The translations under genes were made by a program, and so were the position numbers. The notes beneath the pieces are model-generated. The model was not told where the DNA came from and did not search any database. It was given only the letters and a program-made list of their open reading frames with translations. A stretch of 11,617 nucleotides of DNA from a virus (taxonomy: Duplodnaviria; Heunggongvirae; Uroviricota; Caudoviricetes). The stretch lies in IMG/VR virus record IMGVR_UViG_2622736468_000004; one strand, 5' to 3'. This document shows positions 3,675 to 11,617 of the stretch, piece after piece. Numbering within the stretch: the stretch's first letter is position 1; each line of letters starts with the position of its first letter.

Positions 3675-3922
3675 TATAATAAACTTACTTTTTTATCATT
3701 TTTCCACTTTAACAACATTTTGCTCCACTTTTCCACGACCAAACAACTTGAAATCTGGTTAAAATAACACGCAACACTATTCTTCTTCCTTGAGTCCGCC
3801 CGGAACTCGAAAAACAAACCGAGTTAAAGCCATTTTTCACAAAATCGATTTTGGGTCTCACCAAAATTACGGGGTTGCATACGCATTCGTTTATTTTCGA
3901 ACGTGTAGGTAATGACTCCAAC

Positions 3923-4426
3923 TTATTGATAGTGTTTTATGTTCAGATAATGCCCGATGACTTTGTCATGCAGCTCCACCGATTTTGAGAACGACAGCGA
4001 CTTCCGTCCCAGCCGTGCCAGGTGCTGTCTCAGATTCAGGTTATGCCGCTCAATTCGCTGCGTATATCGCTTGCTGATTACGTGCAGCTTTCCCTTCAGG
4101 CGGGATTCATACAGCGGCCAGCCATCCGTCATCCATATCACCACGTCAAAGGGTGACAGCAGGCTCATAAGACACCCCAGCGTCGCCAGAGTGCGTTCAC
4201 CGAATACGTGCGCAACAACCGTCTTCCGGAGCCTGTCATACGCGTAAAACAGCCAGCGCTGGCGCGATTTAGCCCCGACATAGCCCCACTGTTCGTCCAT
4301 TTCCGCGCAGACGATGACGTCACTGCCCGGCTGTATGCGCGAGGTTACCGACTGCGGCCTGAGTTTTTTAAGTGACGTAAAATCGTGTTGAGGCCAACGC
4401 CCATAATGCGGGCTGTTGCCCGGCAT
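3923..4426 (-). CDS. insB: IS1 InsB reading frame (expressed as an InsAB' fusion by -1 frameshifting)
   Basis: [53 protein letters not shown]... is canonical IS1 InsB. It overlaps insA in the -1 frame. Confidence 0.9.
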
Positions 4427-4620
4427 CCAACGCCATTCATGGCCATATCAATGATTTTCTGGTGCGTACCGGGTTGAGAAGCGGTGTAAGTGAACTGCAG
4501 TTGCCATGTTTTACGGCAGTGAGAGCAGAGATAGCGCTGATGTCCGGCGGTGCTTTTGCCGTTACGCACCACCCCGTCAGTAGCTGAACAGGAGGGACAG
4601 CTGATAGAAACAGAAGCCAC
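4345..4620 (-). CDS. insA: IS1 InsA (transposition inhibitor / N-terminal part of the InsAB' transposase), 91 aa
   Basis: [42 protein letters not shown]... is the classic IS1 InsA with a CxxC...CxxC zinc finger. Confidence 0.95.
4363..4369 (-). other. IS1 programmed -1 ribosomal frameshift site (A6C slippery heptamer) between insA and insB
   Basis: Plus-strand gtttttt at 4363-4369 is AAAAAAC on the coding strand, inside the insA/insB overlap. Confidence 0.8.
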
Positions 4621-4653
4621 TGGAGCACCTCAAAAACACCATCATACACTAAA

Positions 4654-5565
4654 TCAGTAAGTTGGCAGCATCACCCGACTTTCGAATACGGAATCATTTG
4701 TCACCCCCATTGATATGCAGGGTGTCTTCTTCCTGTATTTTTCGTGAAGGATTTTTACTGCAGCGTTGTTCCAGGTGACCTGATGGTGAATGCGTTTATG
4801 GCTGGCACCCATCAGTGAGATTTTTACGCACGACGGCGCATACATGACGGAGTAAAAACTTTTAACGTAGGTTCCGGAATCCAGATACAGCTCGGTCATT
4901 CCGCCGCTGTTTTTCTGCGTCTGTTTCTGCCCTAACTGGACAGCACCGATCGTCATAAACAATTCACCACAGCGGCCGAGATTCGTGTACGTATTCACAT
5001 CCTCGTTAATGCGCCCCATGAATGAGAACGGTCGATCAACCGAACAGATAAAGCTGTTCATTGCCTTGCGTTTCACCCACGAAGCATGGCCGCCATTGTC
5101 ACCAAGAAAATCCCCGCCCTGCGACATAGCGATGGAAAGAGCAGGTATTGATTCGTAGTACGCCAGCATTTCAGAAAGGATCGCATCCAGTTTCCTTATC
5201 GGAAAATAGGCCTGGTCATAGTTGCGATCCACCCGAAACTGGAACTCGTGATAATCATCATCGAGCTGAATGAAGTATTTACACCCGACCAGTTTTGCCT
5301 GGTCGAAACAGGCATTACGGGCGTAAAAAATTGAGCGGCGGTCACAGAAATTATCGGCTTCGTCAAAACGACTGGCGATATCGGCTTTGGAAAACACCAG
5401 CACCTGTTCACCAAATTCAGCCATGTACTGATGCCGTGTCTTATCTTCATCATCAACAACGATAAAAATTTTCCCGGTATAGCCAGCACGACGCAACGTC
5501 CGGTAAGTCAGAACTTTGTCCGGTCGCCCGTGAGTCAGAATAAAGGCGCAAAAATCATCACGCAT
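4654..5565 (-). CDS. Uncharacterised protein with a GT-A-like signature (tentative), translationally coupled to the upstream ParB-like gene; 3' end disrupted by IS1
   Basis: ORF 4654-5586; the favoured start is ATG 5563-5565 (MRDDFCAFILTHGRPDKV...), directly preceded by GAGGAGGAGG and overlapping the ParB-like stop (ATGCGTGA). The N-terminus has a beta-strand/THGRPD/...IFIVVDDEDKT layout and a later IQLDDDY, resembling nucleotide-sugar transferase DxD motifs. The last 6-7 codons and the stop (4654-4675) lie in IS1 sequence, so the native C-terminus is lost. Confidence 0.55.
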   Translation of the reverse strand: MRDDFCAFILTHGRPDKVLTYRTLRRAGYTGKIFIVVDDEDKTRHQYMAEFGEQVLVFSKADIASRFDEADNFCDRRSIFYARNACFDQAKLVGCKYFIQLDDDYHEFQFRVDRNYDQAYFPIRKLDAILSEMLAYYESIPALSIAMSQGGDFLGDNGGHASWVKRKAMNSFICSVDRPFSFMGRINEDVNTYTNLGRCGELFMTIGAVQLGQKQTQKNSGGMTELYLDSGTYVKSFYSVMYAPSCVKISLMGASHKRIHHQVTWNNAAVKILHEKYRKKTPCISMGVTNDSVFESRVMLPTY

Positions 5566-6349
5566 ATTCCTCCTCCTCACCACCATGCATGATCTCCACC
5601 ATGCGCTGCGTCATCCGGACAAATCCATTTTCAATAGCCTGCTGATAATCAATGATCACCAGCGCCGACTCCTCGAAAAAACACTGAATTTCAGCGGGGG
5701 CGTGAGCGTAATAGTCCGCAATTCTGCTGAAATTAAACACCGTGTGACGTTCTGCCGCACACAGGAGGAATTTCTCAATATCAGGCTCAAGGGACGCCGA
5801 ACGTATCCGGCTGATCAGCTCCTGAGTTTTCGTATCGTCGTACAGTTCACTGATATCCGGTTTACCGCCCGACGGCTCATAAACAGGCGTATCAATTTTC
5901 GTCGTATACGGCTCCTCCTCATTTCCTGTACCGGGCAAAACATCCGTCAACAGTTCATCAATTTCTGTCGGGATGAAGCCTGTCAGGGAGACATCAAAAT
6001 CAGCATTGATTAGGTCCGACAGCTCCATCCGCAACAGATCTTCATCCCAGCCAGCATTCATCGGCAGGCGATTATCTGCCAGGCGGTACGCCTTTTTCTG
6101 CTCATCCGTCAGGCCAGACAGAACAATGACCGGAACAGAATCCATTTTGAGCATTTCAGCCGCCATAACACGACTGTGACCCGCAATAATTTCGCCCTTT
6201 TCGTCAATCAGCACCGGATTAGTCCAGCCGAATTGCTTAATACTTTCTACCAGTTGTGCCACCTGCTCAGTACTGTGCGTCCTGGCGTTGTGCGCATACG
6301 GTGACAATTCTTGTAATGGGCGATAGACTATCTTTAATTTCTCGCTCAT
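5558..6349 (-). CDS. ParB-like nuclease-domain (ParB/sulfiredoxin fold) protein, 263 aa, acidic C-terminal tail
   Basis: ATG at 6347-6349 with AAGG upstream. The N-terminal region (PLQELSPYAHNARTHS...VLIDEKGEIIAGHSRVMAAEML) matches the ParB N-terminal domain, with an A-G-x-x-R-x-x-A-A box corresponding to the ParB GERRxRAA motif. The C-terminus ends in a GGEEEEYA acidic tail. Confidence 0.75.
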   Translation of the reverse strand: MSEKLKIVYRPLQELSPYAHNARTHSTEQVAQLVESIKQFGWTNPVLIDEKGEIIAGHSRVMAAEMLKMDSVPVIVLSGLTDEQKKAYRLADNRLPMNAGWDEDLLRMELSDLINADFDVSLTGFIPTEIDELLTDVLPGTGNEEEPYTTKIDTPVYEPSGGKPDISELYDDTKTQELISRIRSASLEPDIEKFLLCAAERHTVFNFSRIADYYAHAPAEIQCFFEESALVIIDYQQAIENGFVRMTQRMVEIMHGGEEEEYA

Positions 6350-6376
6350 ACAGCCTTGCTTTATGAATAAAACGCA

Positions 6377-6400
6377 CCCCAGCAGCCAGTGCTACTGGGG
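6377..6400 (-). terminator. Candidate terminator hairpin downstream of trkG (minus strand)
   Basis: Minus-strand RNA CCCCAGUAG-cacugg-CUGCUGGGG (9-bp stem with one G-U) followed after 4 nt by UUUUAUU. The non-adjacent U-tract makes it only moderate. Confidence 0.3.
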
Positions 6401-6486
6401 ACGGAGGTGTTGCTGGTAAAGTTAGGTATTGGATCAATGAGTGAGTCAACATAATATTAAACTCACAATTATAAATCAGCCATATA

Positions 6487-7944
6487 TTAGGAGCGCCAAA
6501 AAAAACCTGAAAACAATATAATAACAGGATAAATTTCAAGGCGACCAAGAATCATAGCTATGCACATTAAACATTTTGCAATGTCATTAAGCACTCCGAA
6601 TGACGATGCAGTAGCCCCAAAACCTAATCCCATATTATTAATACATGCAGCCACTGTTGCAAATGATGTAAGAAAATCATATCCCATACCATTTAACACC
6701 AGTATAAAAAACACCGTGAAGAGAGTATAAAGAAAAAAGAAACTCCATACAGACCTCATTACACGATCTGTAACTATCTTCCCTCCTACATTTACACTCA
6801 ACAACGCTCTGGGATGAGAAAGCTGATTTATCTCGTGTTTGCTTTGTTTGAAAAGTATAAGAAATCGAAGTGACTTAATTCCACCACAAGTTGAACCTAT
6901 ACATCCCCCAAAGAAACTTGACAACAGCAAAAACACTATCGTGTGCGTGGGCCAACTTGCATAATCCTGCGTAGCTAAACCATTATCAGTGAGCATGGAG
7001 CTGGCAAGAAAAAACGAATGAATAAAACTTCCATGCAAGTCATACATACCTATATGCCAGACCTGGAAAGAGGTAACAATGATCACCCCTAAGGCTATTA
7101 ACAGAAAGAAACGAAGTTCAATATCTCTGATTAAAGGTTTTATCGTTTTCCTGCTAATAACAATATACCAAAGAGTGAAGTTGAAAGCCGATAGCAGGGA
7201 AAAAGAACCAGCCACCAGCTCAACCAAATAGTTATTAAAATATCCGATACTCTCGCTATGAGTTGAGAAACCACCAAGCGAAACTGTGGAAATCCCGTGA
7301 CAAATAGCATCAAACAAAGGCATTCCTGCAAGTCTATAACAGACAATACAAGCAATACCTAATAAAGAATAAGTTATCCACAGTGTCCGTGACGTATCGG
7401 CCAGGCGGGGAGTGAGTTTGTCATCCTTAAATGGCCCCGGCATTTCTGACTGATAAAGCTTTGCACCACCAATACCCAATAATGGCAATACAGCAACCGC
7501 CAGAACAATAACTCCTAAACCACCTATAAAATTTAACTGTGACCGATAGTACAAATATGCCCGAGGTAATGAACTAACATCATCAATTACAGTTGCTCCT
7601 GTTGTTGTTATTCCAGAAACCCCTTCAAACAGAGCATCAATGAACGTTAAATTAAGTTCTGAGTCAATCCATAAAGGGAATGCACTAATAACAGAAAACA
7701 AAATCCAAAACATTACAATTATAATAAACCCATCACGGGTACGTAATTGAATGCCAGATTTCTTAGTTGTATACCACGCTCCGCCACCAATGCAAAAAAA
7801 TATAACGAAAGTTATAAAGAAAACGAACAGGCTTTTTTCTTTATAAAACAATGCTACAACCATTGGTGGCAACATTGAAAGACTATAGAGCCAAACCAGG
7901 AACCCACACATATGAGTAACAACTCTTACATGAGATGTATTCAT
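6487..7944 (-). CDS. trkG: TrkH/TrkG-family potassium uptake membrane protein (prophage-borne TrkG), 485 aa
   Basis: Polytopic membrane protein with repeated pore-loop motifs (e.g. GITTTGATV, GGFST, NGLATQD, GLGFGAT). From memory, the sequence beginning MNTSHVRVVTHMCGFLVWLYSLSMLPP corresponds to Rac-prophage TrkG of E. coli. The ORF track starts at a TTG (7962, with AAGGTGG upstream); the ATG at 7942-7944 gives the 485-aa form. Markedly AT-rich relative to its neighbours. Confidence 0.8.
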   Translation of the reverse strand: MNTSHVRVVTHMCGFLVWLYSLSMLPPMVVALFYKEKSLFVFFITFVIFFCIGGGAWYTTKKSGIQLRTRDGFIIIVMFWILFSVISAFPLWIDSELNLTFIDALFEGVSGITTTGATVIDDVSSLPRAYLYYRSQLNFIGGLGVIVLAVAVLPLLGIGGAKLYQSEMPGPFKDDKLTPRLADTSRTLWITYSLLGIACIVCYRLAGMPLFDAICHGISTVSLGGFSTHSESIGYFNNYLVELVAGSFSLLSAFNFTLWYIVISRKTIKPLIRDIELRFFLLIALGVIIVTSFQVWHIGMYDLHGSFIHSFFLASSMLTDNGLATQDYASWPTHTIVFLLLSSFFGGCIGSTCGGIKSLRFLILFKQSKHEINQLSHPRALLSVNVGGKIVTDRVMRSVWSFFFLYTLFTVFFILVLNGMGYDFLTSFATVAACINNMGLGFGATASSFGVLNDIAKCLMCIAMILGRLEIYPVIILFSGFFWRS

Positions 7945-8081
7945 ATCTAAATATTCTTTCAATTATAACCACCTTGCTGCAATATTATGATTATACTGTA
8001 TAAAATTTAACTCCTCTTAGATCTTACTTCACTGTTCCTTATGAAACAATCATCAAAATGAATCATATTGTAGTTAAGATT

Positions 8082-8546
8082 TTACTTTAAACACTGCTCG
8101 GTTATGTATTGCTGAGCACCTTCAAGTTGGGCCTGCATCATTACCAGTCGTTCCCGGAGGGTGAAATAATCCCGTTCAGCGGTGTCTGCCAGTCGGGGGG
8201 AGGCTGCATTATCCACGCCGGAGGCGGTGGTGGCTTCCCGCACTGACTGACAGACTGCTTTGATGTGCAACCGACGACGACCAGCGGCAACATCATCACG
8301 CAGAGCATCATTTTCAGCTTTCGCATCAGCTAACTCCTTCGTGTATTTTGCATCGAGCGCAGCAATATCACGCTGACGCATCTGCATGTCAGTAATTGCC
8401 GCGTTCGCCAGCTTCAGTTCTCTGGCATTTTTGTCGCGCTGGGCTTTGTAGGTAATGGCGTTATCACGGTAATGATTAACAGCCCATGACAGGCAGACGA
8501 TGATGCAGATAACCAGAGCGGAGATAATCGCGGTTACTCTGTTCAT
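8082..8546 (-). CDS. Rz: Rz i-spanin (inner-membrane spanin subunit)
   Basis: [60 protein letters not shown]... closely resembles lambda Rz as I recall it. The ATG at 8544-8546 overlaps the endolysin stop (ATGA). Has an N-terminal TM helix followed by a coiled-coil. Confidence 0.9.
8141..8326 (-). CDS. Rz1: Rz1 o-spanin lipoprotein, wholly embedded in Rz in the +1 frame
   Basis: [52 protein letters not shown]... has a lipobox (VVGC) and a proline-rich mature region; ATG at 8324-8326. The embedded architecture is the hallmark of lambda-type spanins. Confidence 0.85.
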
Positions 8547-9040
8547 TGCTGACCCCACAAACAGATTTCACGCTCAATCTCACGACGAGTCATGAGACCT
8601 TTCCATTGCTTACCGCCAGCATATGTCCAGCGACGTAGCTGATCACATGCGCCTTTGATATCGCCCTGGTTTATTTTGCGAAGAAGCGTCGATGTTCTGA
8701 AATTGCCAGCACCCACGTTGTAAACGAATGAGTAAAGAGCGCCGCGCGTTGTTTCCGGTATATCGACTTTGATGTACGGGTTAATTTGTCTGGCGACAGT
8801 GGCAAGGTCTTTATTCAAGAGTGTTTTGCATTCTGCTTTGGTATACGTTTTACCGAGCATGATGTCTTTTCCTGTATGCCCGTGACATACAGTCCATACA
8901 CCAACAATATCTTTGTATGGTATGTAGCTGACACCTTCCAGACCATCGTTACCACTTGGGCCAGTGATTAACACTGATGCTATAGCAATTGCTCCGCCAC
9001 CAATAGCAGCAGCAACGACTTTTCGTAATGATGGAGGCAT
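8543..9040 (-). CDS. R: SAR endolysin (phage-21 R-type, T4-lysozyme/GH24 fold), 165 aa
   Basis: The N-terminal Gly/Ala-rich weakly hydrophobic SAR domain ([21 protein letters not shown]) is followed by the catalytic triad E-x8-D-x5-T ([16 protein letters not shown]). The ATG at 9038-9040 overlaps the holin stop. Confidence 0.9.
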
Positions 9041-9255
9041 TATTCACCTCTCGCAGCCTTGCGCTTATCTTCTTTAATCTTGAAATAAAGGTTTGTCAGG
9101 TACGTCAGCAGGCCAAATACCAGACTACCCAGCACACCGATTGCAGCCCACTGTGACGGAGTTACTCTATCGAGCAACTGTAAAAACCAGTAGCCAGCAC
9201 TGCCTGCGGAGGTGCCGTAGGCAATGCCTGTTGAAATTTTGTCCATGGATTTCAT
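9040..9255 (-). CDS. S: Pinholin (phage-21 S21-type class II holin) with dual-start motif MKSM, 71 aa
   Basis: [71 protein letters not shown] has two TM domains and Met1/Met4 dual starts (antiholin/holin). GGAGGTGA Shine-Dalgarno upstream of ATG 9253-9255. The ORF track's longer 90-aa form (start 9312) lacks comparable support. Confidence 0.85.
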
Positions 9256-9289
9256 AGCCTCACCTCCGCACGGAACGGATGGCATAGTT

Positions 9290-9317
9290 ATTATGTGTAG
9301 GCTTTCAGACACATCAA
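9290..9317 (-). promoter_or_regulatory. Candidate sigma70-type promoter immediately upstream of the holin (minus strand)
   Basis: On the minus strand: TTGATG (-35; plus coordinates 9312-9317), a 16-bp spacer, then CATAAT (-10; plus coordinates 9290-9295), about 35 nt upstream of the S start codon. Hexamer match only. Confidence 0.25.
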
Positions 9318-9356
9318 TCAGAGCCTTAATTGATATATATGCTGGAGACGATGCAA

Positions 9357-9381
9357 TATAAAAAGCTCGCCGTAGCGAGCT
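9357..9381 (-). terminator. Rho-independent terminator (minus strand) between the TolA-like lipoprotein gene and the lysis cassette
   Basis: Minus-strand RNA AGCUCGC-uacg-GCGAGCU (perfect 7-bp GC-rich stem, tetraloop) immediately followed by UUUUUAUA. Confidence 0.55.
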
Positions 9382-9506
9382 AATAAAATGTATTTCTCTG
9401 ATATTATGTTTATTTGTATTAGCTCAGACTTGACATCACAGGTTTCGTATATAGAACATCATCAAATCTGTCAGTTTGCTATGAATGAGATATAGTAATT
9501 GAAGAG

Positions 9507-9902
9507 CTAACCTCGCATGTCAAAGCCAGATTTCTGAAAATCTCTGTAGACTTCCGGATTGTTGAAGGCCGGAAATTTGGCTTTATGAGCTGCGGACTTT
9601 ATCGCTTCGCAATAGGCTTTATCACCGTTACTGGTAGATATTTTTAACGCCGTGCCATCCTGAGAGAATTCCATATGCAACCTGCATTTTTTCCCTTTCC
9701 AGTTATGCGGCTCATCAAGTTTGGCATTAATTGCAGCTCTGATTCCCCGCGCTTGCGCCCCCCATTCATCCTGATCATCCCAGCGTCCTGAACTGCAACT
9801 ACCTGTAGCAGTAGTTTTGTGGCAATCTGAAGGGTGTAAAGGTGTGCATCCCGCAACAAAACCGACCCAAAAAGTCAACATAACGATTTTCTTTAATCCC
9901 AC
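9507..9902 (-). CDS. Prophage lipoprotein with a TolA C-terminal (domain III)-like domain, 131 aa
   Basis: GTG start at 9900-9902 preceded by GAGGAG (an in-frame ATG lies at 9879-9881). Signal peptide with lipobox (FVAGC). The C-terminal ~80 aa (KKCRLHMEFSQDGTALKISTSNGDKAYCEAIKSAAHKAKFPAFNNPEVYRDFQ) follow the TolA domain III pattern as I recall it (TCTLRIKLAPDGMLLDIKPEGGDPALCQAALAAAKLAKIPKPPSQAVYEVFK). Confidence 0.7.
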   Translation of the reverse strand: MGLKKIVMLTFWVGFVAGCTPLHPSDCHKTTATGSCSSGRWDDQDEWGAQARGIRAAINAKLDEPHNWKGKKCRLHMEFSQDGTALKISTSNGDKAYCEAIKSAAHKAKFPAFNNPEVYRDFQKSGFDMRG

Positions 9903-10053
9903 TTCTTGCTCCTCAATCCATTAAAATCTCAGCAATAGTAGTTGTTACGTCCGCCACTGGCTCAGAGCTGACTATCCGCTAAATTTAGCTCAGTGCCGTA
10001 GCTGTGTCAGAACAAACCTAAGCCGAAACCGTTTATTACAAAACAATAAATAT

Positions 10054-10225
10054 CAGGGTTTAAAATCCAGCACCCCATTTTGAAATACTTTATATACTTC
10101 CGGCGAAGGGGGGGCAGGTATATCAGCATTCTTTATCGCATTCATCGCTTCACGACATAAATCGAGGTCTCCACTTTCTCTTTTAACCTCCAGTAGAAGG
10201 CCATTCGGGGCCATATGCATTCTCA
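10054..10225 (-). pseudogene. 3' fragment (C-terminal 56 codons) of a second TolA-C-like gene, 5'-truncated by IS1
   Basis: Manual minus-strand translation of 10225 to 10054 gives ...RMHMAPNGLLLEVKRESGDLDLCREAMNAIKNADIPAPPSPEVYKVFQNGVLDFKP*, which matches the TolA domain III C-terminus pattern (...PLDFKP). The frame is open up to the IS1 boundary at 10226. Not in the ORF track. Confidence 0.6.
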
Positions 10226-10280
10226 GGTGATGCTGCCAACTTACTGATTTAGTGTATGATGGTGTTTTTGAGGTGCTCCA

Positions 10281-10556
10281 GTGGCTTCTGTTTCTATCAG
10301 CTGTCCCTCCTGTTCAGCTACTGACGGGGTGGTGCGTAACGGCAAAAGCACCGCCGGACATCAGCGCTATCTCTGCTCTCACTGCCGTAAAACATGGCAA
10401 CTGCAGTTCACTTACACCGCTTCTCAACCCGGTACGCACCAGAAAATCATTGATATGGCCATGAATGGCGTTGGATGCCGGGCAACAGCCCGCATTATGG
10501 GCGTTGGCCTCAACACGATTTTACGTCACTTAAAAAACTCAGGCCGCAGTCGGTAA
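10281..10556 (+). CDS. insA: IS1 InsA
   Basis: Identical 91-aa InsA sequence to the other copy. Confidence 0.95.
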
Positions 10557-10978
10557 CCTCGCGCATACAGCCGGGCAGTGACGTCATCGTCTGCGCGGAA
10601 ATGGACGAACAGTGGGGCTATGTCGGGGCTAAATCGCGCCAGCGCTGGCTGTTTTACGCGTATGACAGGCTCCGGAAGACGGTTGTTGCGCACGTATTCG
10701 GTGAACGCACTATGGCGACGCTGGGGTGTCTTATGAGCCTGCTGTCACCCTTTGACGTGGTGATATGGATGACGGATGGCTGGCCGCTGTATGAATCCCG
10801 CCTGAAGGGAAAGCTGCACGTAATCAGCAAGCGATATACGCAGCGAATTGAGCGGCATAACCTGAATCTGAGACAGCACCTGGCACGGCTGGGACGGAAG
10901 TCGCTGTCGTTCTCAAAATCGGTGGAGCTGCATGACAAAGTCATCGGGCATTATCTGAACATAAAACACTATCAATAA
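10475..10978 (+). CDS. insB: IS1 InsB reading frame (InsAB' via -1 frameshift)
   Basis: Canonical InsB sequence; the A6C slippery site lies at 10532-10538. Confidence 0.9.
10532..10538 (+). other. IS1 programmed -1 frameshift heptamer AAAAAAC
   Basis: ttaaaaaactc, within the insA/insB overlap. Confidence 0.8.
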
Positions 10979-10993
10979 GTTGGAGTCATTACC

Positions 10994-11617
10994 ACAGAAT
11001 TCAATGCATTAATGGAAAGTGAAAAAGGACAGAGCCAGAACTTGTGGAAATTTGCCGTTTACTCAGGACTTCGTCACGGGGAACTGGCAGCTCTGGCGTG
11101 GGAGGATGTGGATCTCGAAAAGGGAATAGTGAATGTCAGAAGAAACCTGACGATACTTGATATGTTCGGTCCCCCAAAAACAAATGCCGGGATCCGAACA
11201 GTAACACTACTGCAGCCTGCTCTTGAAGCACTGAAGGAGCAATACAAACTGACCGGGCATCATCGCAAAAGCGAAATCACCTTTTATCATCGGGAGTACG
11301 GCAGAACCGAAAAGCAAAAACTGCATTTTGTTTTCATGCCCAGGGTGTGTAACGGAAAACAAAAACCTTATTACTCGGTAAGCAGTTTGGGGGCAAGGTG
11401 GAATGCAGCAGTAAAACGTGCTGGTATTCGCCGCCGTAATCCGTACCATACGCGACATACTTTTGCCTGCTGGCTGTTGACGGCAGGAGCGAACCCGGCA
11501 TTTATAGCCAGCCAAATGGGGCATGAAACTGCGCAGATGGTGTATGAAATTTACGGTATGTGGATTGATGACATGAACGACGAACAGATAGCCATGTTGA
11601 ATGCGCGGTTATCGTAG
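10994..11617 (+). pseudogene. C-terminal catalytic fragment of a tyrosine recombinase (phage integrase family), N-terminus removed by IS1
   Basis: The frame is open from the IS1 boundary (TEFNALMESEKGQ...) to the stop at 11615-11617. Contains catalytic-domain signatures: ...NAGIRTVTL..., HTRHTFACWLL (H-x-x-R), GHETAQM, and the terminal tyrosine region VYEIYGMW. The N-terminal DNA-binding/core-binding domains are absent. Confidence 0.8.

Follow-up and report, generated by a model that had tools for sequence, protein, structure and literature searches.

A mobile gene for a predicted TolA domain III lipoprotein in a prophage remnant and its possible role as a decoy

Introduction

What does TolA domain III do when it is encoded by itself, next to the lysis genes of a phage? 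The question is raised by a gene on the minus strand, at positions 9507-9902, of the IMG/VR record IMGVR_UViG_2622736468_000004, a stretch of 11,617 nucleotides assigned to the Caudoviricetes that was analysed as a whole and is referred to here as the window. An initial annotation of the window described the gene as encoding a prophage lipoprotein that imitates TolA domain III (TolAIII), placed as a moron upstream of the lysis cassette, and proposed that it might act in superinfection exclusion or colicin tolerance. The gene, here designated paralog A, was therefore compared with collections of protein families, structures, phages, plasmids and chromosomes.

The comparison reveals a known domain in a new, mobile architecture with a predicted lipid anchor, for which a protective role is plausible. 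The family of lipoproteins with a TolA_C domain to which paralog A belongs is common, conserved and uncharacterised. We tentatively favour the reading that paralog A is a decoy, tethered to the outer membrane, for invaders that depend on TolA, i.e. pilus-specific filamentous phages and group A bacteriocins. The idea of a decoy or colicin-tolerance factor has gained strength from the association with plasmids, and it is put forward here as a proposal.

Results

A TolA domain III outside TolA

The open reading frame (ORF) at 9507..9902 (-) is a complete gene of 131 codons plus stop. Residues 44-125 of its product match the Pfam family TolA_C (PF06519) with E=1.3e-14 and 54.6 bits against a cutoff of 25, and a phmmer search of all PDB sequences returned the E. 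coli TolAIII chains 1s62, 3qdp, 2x9a and 1tol as top matches (E ~5e-9). An AlphaFold2 (AF2) model, for which an alignment of 56 sequences was used as input, reached a predicted local distance difference test score (pLDDT) above 90 over residues 45-131 and low confidence over residues 20-44. The fold, located at 9510..9770 (-) by profile and model, consists of helices at residues 46-61 and 65-68, strands at 72-79 and 85-93, helices at 95-107 and 116-122, and a C-terminal strand at 124-130. With Foldseek the model was superimposed on 2x9a_B, 3qdp and 1tol at an rmsd of 1.0-1.3 Å, with a probability of 1.00 and an identity of about 31%. The target-normalised TM-score was 0.87 for 2x9a_B (from the If1-g3p complex) and 0.93 for 3qdp (from a study of colicin A), both isolated TolAIII chains, and 0.51 for the 156-residue 1tol (a fusion of M13 g3p and TolA).

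These results agree with the initial annotation, which had assigned the C-terminal ~80 residues to TolAIII on the basis of a conserved cysteine pair, a D-G motif and a VYxxF motif: in the alignment with the PDB sequences, C73 and C98 fall on both cysteines of TolAIII, and DG and VYxxF are present as well. Overall, the domain is 34% identical to E. coli TolAIII. The C-terminal strand on which TolA ligands dock reads SGFDMRG in paralog A and APLDFKP in TolA; the Asp is retained, the Lys is replaced by Arg, and the strand is free of proline. This Asp is nearly invariant across paralog A, a neighbouring paralog B (see below) and a more distant version of the protein encoded on Klebsiella plasmids.

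Paralog A is a member of the TolA_C family, but it is no TolA. The NCBIfam models for full-length TolA (NF007065 and TIGR02794) remained far below their cutoffs (53.7 vs 213 and 47.2 vs 59.45) and aligned over just their last ~80 positions. Both the transmembrane domain I, which binds TolQR, and the long helical domain II, which spans the periplasm, are missing, and a linker of 25 residues stands in place of the latter, so that a stand-alone domain III on a predicted lipid anchor is the architecture of the protein. Since domains I and II are absent, coupling to TolQR and transmission of the proton-motive force are impossible. The genes around the copies of paralog A are lysis genes and IS1, nikB and trbABC, toxB, or unrelated chromosomal genes, and not tolQRA-tolB-pal. 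Among phage protein families, PHROG 5772, to which no function is assigned, matches paralog A over its full length (E=6.7e-65) and also matches paralog B and the Klebsiella plasmid version. Apart from TolA_C and PHROG 5772 nothing was found for paralog A in the Pfam and PHROG scans, and public annotation gives the domain name alone ('cell envelope integrity TolA C-terminal domain-containing protein', 'tolA family protein').

Predicted lipid anchor and conserved linker

The N-terminus, MGLKKIVMLTFWVGFVAGC, comprises the basic n-region MGLKK with two lysines, the hydrophobic core IVMLTFWVGF and the lipobox VAGC. Residues 1-18 (9849..9902, -; MGLKKIVMLTFWVGFVAG) are read as the signal peptide, ending in VAG and followed by Cys19, whose codon lies at 9848-9846 (-) and which is invariant in the homologue alignments (n=16 and n=56). 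As in substrates of signal peptidase II, a lipobox of the pattern [LVI][ASTVI][GAS]C is present within the first ~35 residues together with a basic n-region and a hydrophobic core. The lipoprotein signal peptide with lipobox FVAGC noted in the initial annotation is thus upheld. For lipoproteins, a residue other than Asp at position +2 leads to Lol-dependent sorting to the outer membrane. This residue is Thr in paralog A and Thr, Ala or Ser, never Asp, among the aligned homologues, and on these grounds mature paralog A is predicted to be an outer-membrane lipoprotein that is lipidated at Cys19.

The linker between anchor and domain (residues 20-44; 9771..9845, -; TPLHPSDCHKTTATGSCSSGRWDDQ), for which the confidence of the AF2 model was low, contains two extra cysteines, C27 and C36. 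In all close homologues the linker region, CxPLHPSxCHKTTATGSCSSGRWDDQDEWG, is conserved as strongly as the domain. It carries the acidic and aromatic motif GRWDDQDEWG.

Selection and functionality

Comparison of prophage, plasmid and chromosomal copies gave dN/dS values of 0.04-0.12 for the mature protein at dS values of 0.5-1.1. This purifying selection covers the linker as well as the domain, and judged from these substitution patterns the gene is clearly functional in every type of replicon. A copy on plasmid pMS7163B has probably been included in a published screen by transposon-directed insertion-site sequencing (TraDIS), in which ORF 720, at the same position after nikB, showed a log2 fold change (log2FC) of +0.39 compared to about -5.7 for nikAB (PMC10286972); that ORF 720 is the TolA_C gene is inferred from its position and size alone.

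Distribution and mobility

In E. coli, the locus is present at an identity of at least 99% in 777 of 5426 complete genomes (~14%), where it lies inside a decaying prophage. Deposited phage genomes are a different matter, with the gene present in 1 of 50,697 (mEp460_ev081) and absent from the other 50,696, and among the viral structures of BFVD no significant TolAIII-like fold was detected. IMG/VR contains 59 contigs of prophage type with the gene; in addition to the E. coli arrangement, it is found as cargo at the end of a prophage, beside umuDC, or near an O-antigen-type acyltransferase gene.

Plasmids are the more frequent carriers. About 600 of them encode an 88%-identical version. In IncB/O, IncK, IncZ and IncI-gamma plasmids a gap of 68 bp separates it from the preceding, co-oriented relaxase gene nikB, and it is flanked by nikAB and trbABC. 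In pO157-like IncF plasmids the 88%-identical gene has the hok/psiAB leading region on one side and toxB on the other. Moreover, ~290 conjugative IncFII plasmids of Klebsiella encode a lipoprotein version with 35% identity. In one of these, K. pneumoniae plasmid NZ_CP033755 (locus L005, 5217-6246), a gene for a thioredoxin-fold protein precedes the TolA_C lipoprotein gene, and a UvrD-helicase and ATPase pair resembling a defence system is found a few kb away. An 8.3-kb contig binned as Lachnospiraceae (CAAFVW010000016) contains the plasmid-type gene at 88% identity after an ORF of 903 codons and before ORFs of 767 and 374 codons; in size and order these match the nikB-like relaxase, trbC and DsbC-family genes of I-complex plasmids, and the contig is most likely a mis-binned fragment of an enterobacterial plasmid.

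Close homologues with 78-89% identity occur in Citrobacter, Enterobacter, Serratia, Raoultella and Klebsiella. Chromosomal copies overall are 65-89% identical (47% in two Klebsiella species) and are found at unrelated sites. A scan of one genome per species yielded 22 loci in ~20 species of Enterobacterales, the flanks of which are almost all mutually unrelated. Within Enterobacter, vertical inheritance was considered and rejected, as the flanks differ between nearly all species representatives, although one locus in this genus is common to several genomes. At the DNA level, the contexts are homologous over the ORF and just ~100-130 bp upstream of it, up to the stop codon; the mobile unit is therefore a single gene together with its 5′ region. 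The initial description as a prophage lipoprotein is correct as far as prophages do carry the gene, and too narrow in view of the ~600 plasmids, the unrelated chromosomal sites and the single phage genome.

Next to the gene are ordinary chromosomal genes and occasionally genes for integrases, RexB, UmuDC, a KAP NTPase, GmrSD and HEPN proteins or an O-antigen-type acyltransferase. In Serratia marcescens (loci L010-L013, 8001-10736) the homologue adjoins genes for GmrSD_N, which is similar to type IV restriction enzymes, and HEPN proteins in an arrangement reminiscent of a defence island. The loci of K. grimontii and K. michiganensis (L041, 5517-6393; L042, 5517-6390) have, directly before the gene of the 47%-identical TolA_C lipoprotein, a gene for a short secreted TonB_C protein of 141 amino acids (PF03544, E=1.2e-15), and thus pair stand-alone C-terminal domains of both energy transducers. 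Beyond these homologues, a library of representatives at 50% identity contains dozens of mutually distant proteins of 115-165 amino acids that combine a lipobox with TolA_C, and most short TolA_C relatives have a lipobox, which suggests that the lipid-anchored, stand-alone TolAIII forms a broad class.

Translation and transcription signals

The start codon of paralog A is the GTG at 9902-9900 (-), and the Shine-Dalgarno sequence GAGGAG is located at 9909..9914 (-) with a spacer of 6 nt, as read by the initial annotation. In the same register an ATG is found in plasmid homologues and a GTG in chromosomal homologues of other genera, and the start position is supported because these starts coincide. 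The Shine-Dalgarno sequence is kept in prophage, plasmid and chromosomal contexts alike.

The terminator that had been placed at 9357-9381 was also recovered: a hairpin resembling an intrinsic terminator, with a 7-bp stem and a 4-nt loop, lies at 9381-9364 (-) and is followed by a T tail to ~9354, between paralog A and the holin gene. Hairpin and T-run (9381-9354) form the sole terminator-like site in 8900-10300. It is common to the window and phage mEp460_ev081 and is not found in the plasmid or chromosomal copies.

As a candidate for an own promoter of paralog A, a weak sigma-70-like site, CTGACA-17-TAAATT, was noted at 9982..10010 (-). With 9 of 12 positions matching it does not rise above shuffled sequences, and its position is not conserved across contexts. 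In the S. marcescens row of the alignment, a TTGAAA-17-AAGAAT motif was read by eye that is not aligned with this site. Since the site is weak and out of register with the S. marcescens motif, no promoter is claimed. The Rfam scan of the window returned no RNA element, and an RNA structure in the conserved ~100-bp 5′ region is unsupported (-2.3 kcal/mol, one covarying pair). The G+C content of paralog A (0.46) is not distinctive compared to that of the flanking phage genes (0.44-0.48).

Genomic surroundings in the window

The lysis cassette (8082..9312, -) was identified by Pfam matches directly downstream of paralog A, where the initial annotation had expected it. It comprises a P21-type holin gene at 9040-9312 (-; longest ORF), for which the 216-nt essD call of RefSeq in strains L73 and HS30-1, moved over by position, corresponds to 9040-9255, a lysozyme gene at 8543-9040 (-) and an Rz gene at 8082-8558 (-). 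A 61-codon ORF at 8141-8326 (-) overlaps Rz at the site of the RefSeq Rz1 lipoprotein gene rzoR of strain L73.

Directly upstream, paralog A is adjoined by a second TolA_C gene in tandem, paralog B, which the initial annotation had overlooked. In the window only its last 57 codons plus stop are left (10053..10225, -; PF06519, E=2.8e-11), as it is truncated by an IS1 copy at 10226..10993 (+) that also separates both TolA_C genes from the late promoter region of the phage. The full-length paralog B is a 142-residue lipoprotein with the lipobox IIGC, a domain that is 61% identical to E. coli TolAIII, and a docking strand (GVLDFKP) nearly identical to that of TolA (APLDFKP); its identity to paralog A is 29%. 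It is annotated as a pseudogene in many genomes. In phage mEp460_ev081 both paralogs are intact and lie in tandem between the gene of the Q antiterminator and the lysis genes. In its place between Q and the holin gene and in its variable presence, paralog A resembles a moron; a terminator lies downstream of it, the promoter-like site is weak and not conserved in position, and the base composition is ordinary.

The window itself is a heavily rearranged remnant of a Rac-type prophage. It contains trkG, a ParB-like ynaK, a gene for a TET-associated glycosyltransferase (TAGT family), one IS66-family element, two inverted IS1 copies and an integrase fragment. Both IS1 copies are complete (768 bp; 3908-4675 and 10226-10993), point inward with the same end and bracket 4676-10225 with the TAGT gene, ynaK, trkG, the lysis cassette and the TolA_C genes, a layout like that of a composite transposon or one prone to inversion. 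The glycosyltransferase gene (4654-5586, -; PF20691, E=1.2e-34) overlaps the end of the ParB_N/YnaK-like gene (5558-6349, -), and the two may form a pair for the modification of phage DNA; comparison with strain HS30-1 showed that the last 12 residues of the glycosyltransferase are encoded by IS1-derived codons. The trkG gene (6487-7962, -), encoding a K+ transporter of the TrkH family (PF02386, E=5e-145) and with a G+C content of 0.38, is located between the lysis genes and ynaK, in agreement with the Rac-type prophage segment that is annotated for strains L73 and HS30-1. The left end of the window is occupied by the IS66-family element (151-2483, -), which encodes a transposase of 512 amino acids, a TnpB of 115 amino acids and a TnpA-like ORF. 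An integrase-like ORF (11012-11617, +) directly follows IS1 and is still open where the window ends; judged by eye, it looks like the C-terminal portion of a tyrosine integrase and is probably a fragment cut by IS1.

Discussion

A motor-less decoy as the favoured reading

Several parasitic ligands enter the cell by way of the domain that paralog A carries. The N1 domain of g3p (g3p-N1), the translocation domain of colicin N (ColN-T) and the TolB N-terminus each add a strand to beta3 of TolAIII (A415-K420), mainly through backbone hydrogen bonds of D418 and K420; in this docking beta-propensity outweighs sequence, and prolines abolish binding (PMC4339652; PMC7391070). Colicin A docks on the opposite side, on beta2 (PMC7391070; PMC4339652). 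Uptake of the ligands requires the TolQR motor acting via domains I and II of TolA (PMC10666116). As pilus receptors, phage If1 uses IncI and M13 uses IncF (PMC7911639, Table 1), and the g3p of If1 binds TolAIII as a co-receptor (PDB 2x9a).

According to the reading that we tentatively favour, signal peptidase II would cleave the precursor of paralog A, and lipidation at Cys19 would be followed by transfer to the inner leaflet of the outer membrane. The conserved linker of ~25 residues would then hold the TolAIII fold in the periplasm directly beneath the outer membrane, at the place where the translocation domains of colicins and g3p first emerge on entry. There, the protein would capture ligands that need beta-strand augmentation on TolAIII for entry, namely g3p-N1 of the pilus-specific filamentous phages (Ff for F pili, If1 for I pili) and those parts of group A colicins and related bacteriocins that bind TolA. 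With no motor attached to the captured ligand, import would stall and the cell would be tolerant. Such a role would explain the carriage of the gene on I-complex and F-type plasmids, which expose their host to TolA-dependent agents, and its status as cargo in temperate phages and genomic islands. The variable flanks and neighbours such as integrase, RexB, umuDC and GmrSD/HEPN genes suggest a cargo-like behaviour and are counted for the decoy. Also in its favour are the docking strand that is free of proline, the functional constraint seen in dN/dS, the pairing with a TonB_C protein in K. grimontii and K. michiganensis, and the dominant-negative effect of free periplasmic TolAIII, which reportedly makes cells tolerant of group A colicins. 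On I-complex plasmids, moreover, the gene is a fixed part of the backbone, and yet ORF 720 of pMS7163B, at the equivalent position, is dispensable for transfer.

Somewhat more doubtful is the wider proposal of an immunity of mobile elements by co-receptor mimicry, in which a motor-less copy of TolAIII tethered to the outer membrane would intercept g3p and the domains of group A bacteriocins before they reach the energised TolA. At some loci this copy would be joined by another TolA copy or by a short protein with TonB_C, and on I-complex and F-type plasmids the decoy would offset the vulnerability to phages that is created by the pili of the plasmid itself. Superinfection exclusion in the strict sense, as raised in the initial annotation, is unlikely, because lambdoid phages are not known to need TolA.

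A number of points weigh against the decoy. The domain is just 34% identical to that of the host, a strong purifying selection together with near-identity across genera is atypical of a decoy in an arms race and would be explained no less well by binding to a conserved partner in the host, for example the TolB N-terminus, and the leakiness that free TolAIII reportedly causes would be a cost for any decoy. Many carrier chromosomes have no evident genes for conjugative pili near the gene. In the window, IS1 cuts paralog A off from the late promoter, and the promoter-like site upstream of it is weak and not conserved. PADLOC-DB v2 gave no match at E<=0.1 for paralog A, paralog B or the Klebsiella plasmid version, and no paper describing the lipoprotein TolA_C family was found in the full-text literature.

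Other explanations of the gene

The purifying selection leads to the most serious rival, which we nevertheless consider unlikely: a modulator of the host Tol-Pal system, in which the tethered TolAIII would compete with TolA for the TolB N-terminus, or for CpoB, and would thereby tune the mobilisation of Pal, the stability of the outer membrane or the production of vesicles. The carrier might gain from shedding more vesicles, or from an envelope that is loosened under stress, while a plasmid is being transferred or at a late stage of the lytic cycle. The TolB N-terminus uses the same beta3 edge as g3p and ColN, which is preserved in paralog A, and a conserved target of this kind would explain both the purifying selection and the identities of 78-89% across genera. 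The stable chromosomal copies in Enterobacter, Serratia and Citrobacter and the position of the phage gene, which directly precedes the holin gene in the late region under Q control, are in line with it. Excess periplasmic TolAIII, as Levengood-Freyermuth and coworkers are said to have observed in 1993, confers tolerance to colicins E1, E2, E3 and A, but not to the TonB-dependent colicin D, and in wild-type cells the free domain reportedly causes leakiness as well; since the same experiment yielded both tolerance and leakiness, Tol-Pal modulation has to be taken seriously. On the other hand, the affinity is low, with a dissociation constant of 40-200 µM for TolAIII and TolB (PMC7391070) as opposed to low-µM values for the parasitic ligands (11.9 µM in steady-state surface plasmon resonance; PMC4339652), so that a minor lipoprotein would titrate little TolB. 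A costly tol-like phenotype is hard to square with carriage by 14% of E. coli genomes and by successful plasmids, the gene is dispensable for conjugation according to TraDIS, and its patchy, cargo-like spread is more typical of genes for conditional protection than of envelope housekeeping.

The dozens of distant lipobox proteins with TolA_C, which may have varied partners, and the linker, which is conserved like a domain and may itself bind, point towards a generic adaptor, i.e. a C-terminal TolA/TonB fold reused as an outer-membrane docking module for another partner, with no role towards Tol-dependent invaders. The identity of just 34% to TolAIII would suit such an adaptor, yet the module, consisting of ~100 bp of 5′ region and the ORF, travels by itself and has no candidate for a co-inherited partner, and paralog B, with its 61% identity to TolAIII and near-identical docking strand, points to the ligands of TolA itself; we regard this explanation as quite unlikely. 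The constant distance of 68 bp to the preceding nikB, which has the same orientation, in IncB/O/K/Z/I-gamma plasmids could indicate a component of conjugation with a function in mating-pair stabilisation or in the envelope in connection with the relaxosome. The same gene is found in prophages, in non-mobilisable pO157-like plasmids and on chromosomes lacking transfer genes, and a role in conjugation, which is very improbable, was rejected on the TraDIS values of ORF 720 and nikAB. Least probable of all, to the point of being negligible, is a captured 3′ end of tolA that has lost its function. Paralog B next to it is indeed truncated in the window and annotated as a pseudogene elsewhere, but the ORF of paralog A is intact, its start, Shine-Dalgarno sequence, lipobox and cysteines are conserved, its fold is predicted with high confidence, and hundreds of intact copies exist on several types of replicon; a pseudogene was rejected on the dN/dS values.

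Significance

Should the decoy proposal hold, paralog A would represent a natural form of protection that works by imitating a periplasmic co-receptor, and not by altering or masking a surface receptor; no report of protection by such imitation was found in the literature. It would be widespread, being present in ~14% of complete E. coli genomes and on ~600 plasmids including the epidemic IncK and IncB/O resistance plasmids and pO157, and it would affect the use of pilus-specific filamentous phages and of Tol-dependent colicins and klebicins against plasmid-bearing Enterobacterales. Additionally, a conserved gene in the backbone of I-complex plasmids, to which no role has been assigned, would be accounted for. 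Were paralog A to tune Tol-Pal instead, outer-membrane stability and vesiculation would be subject to regulation by a mobile gene. E. coli K-12 appears to lack the gene, and its Rac prophage is not known to carry this segment, which is probably the reason why the family has been left untouched by experiments.

Comparison with known systems

Domain III of host TolA (residues about 330-421; 1TOL, 2X9A, 3QDP/3QDR, 1S62) belongs to the same Pfam family as paralog A and shares with it the fold, the disulfide-forming cysteine pair and the C-terminal edge strand for beta-augmentation. Paralog A differs from it in the lipobox anchor, the linker with two cysteines and the location on mobile elements, has no domains I and II and is encoded outside the tol-pal operon. 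The engineered periplasmic TolAIII that Levengood-Freyermuth, Click and Webster in 1993 and Bouveret et al. in 2002 are said to have used is uncoupled from the motor like paralog A and gives the tolerance that is proposed here. It was made in the laboratory, is over-expressed and soluble, has the sequence of the host domain and also makes cells leaky, whereas paralog A is natural, diverged and predicted to be lipid-anchored.

With the late-region morons of lambdoid phages (bor, lom, stx, nmpC) paralog A shares the slot between Q and lysis, the downstream terminator and the presence or absence among prophages; it differs from them in its ordinary G+C content and in that the module is commoner outside phages. 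Cor (phi80, N15 and mEp phages), Llp (T5) and TraT (F) are small exclusion lipoproteins of the outer membrane that are often encoded near lysis or transfer genes. The likeness to paralog A lies in a small lipoprotein of a temperate phage or conjugative plasmid that guards its carrier at the envelope. There is no sequence relation, and while Cor, Llp and TraT bind and inactivate a receptor of the host (FhuA, OmpA), paralog A would imitate one. The superinfection immunity of Ff phages mediated by g3p, described by Boeke, Model and Zinder in 1982, reportedly blocks the step between g3p and TolAIII and confers tolerance to colicins. In that case a phage ligand saturates the TolA of the host; with paralog A, a copy of the receptor would saturate the incoming ligand.

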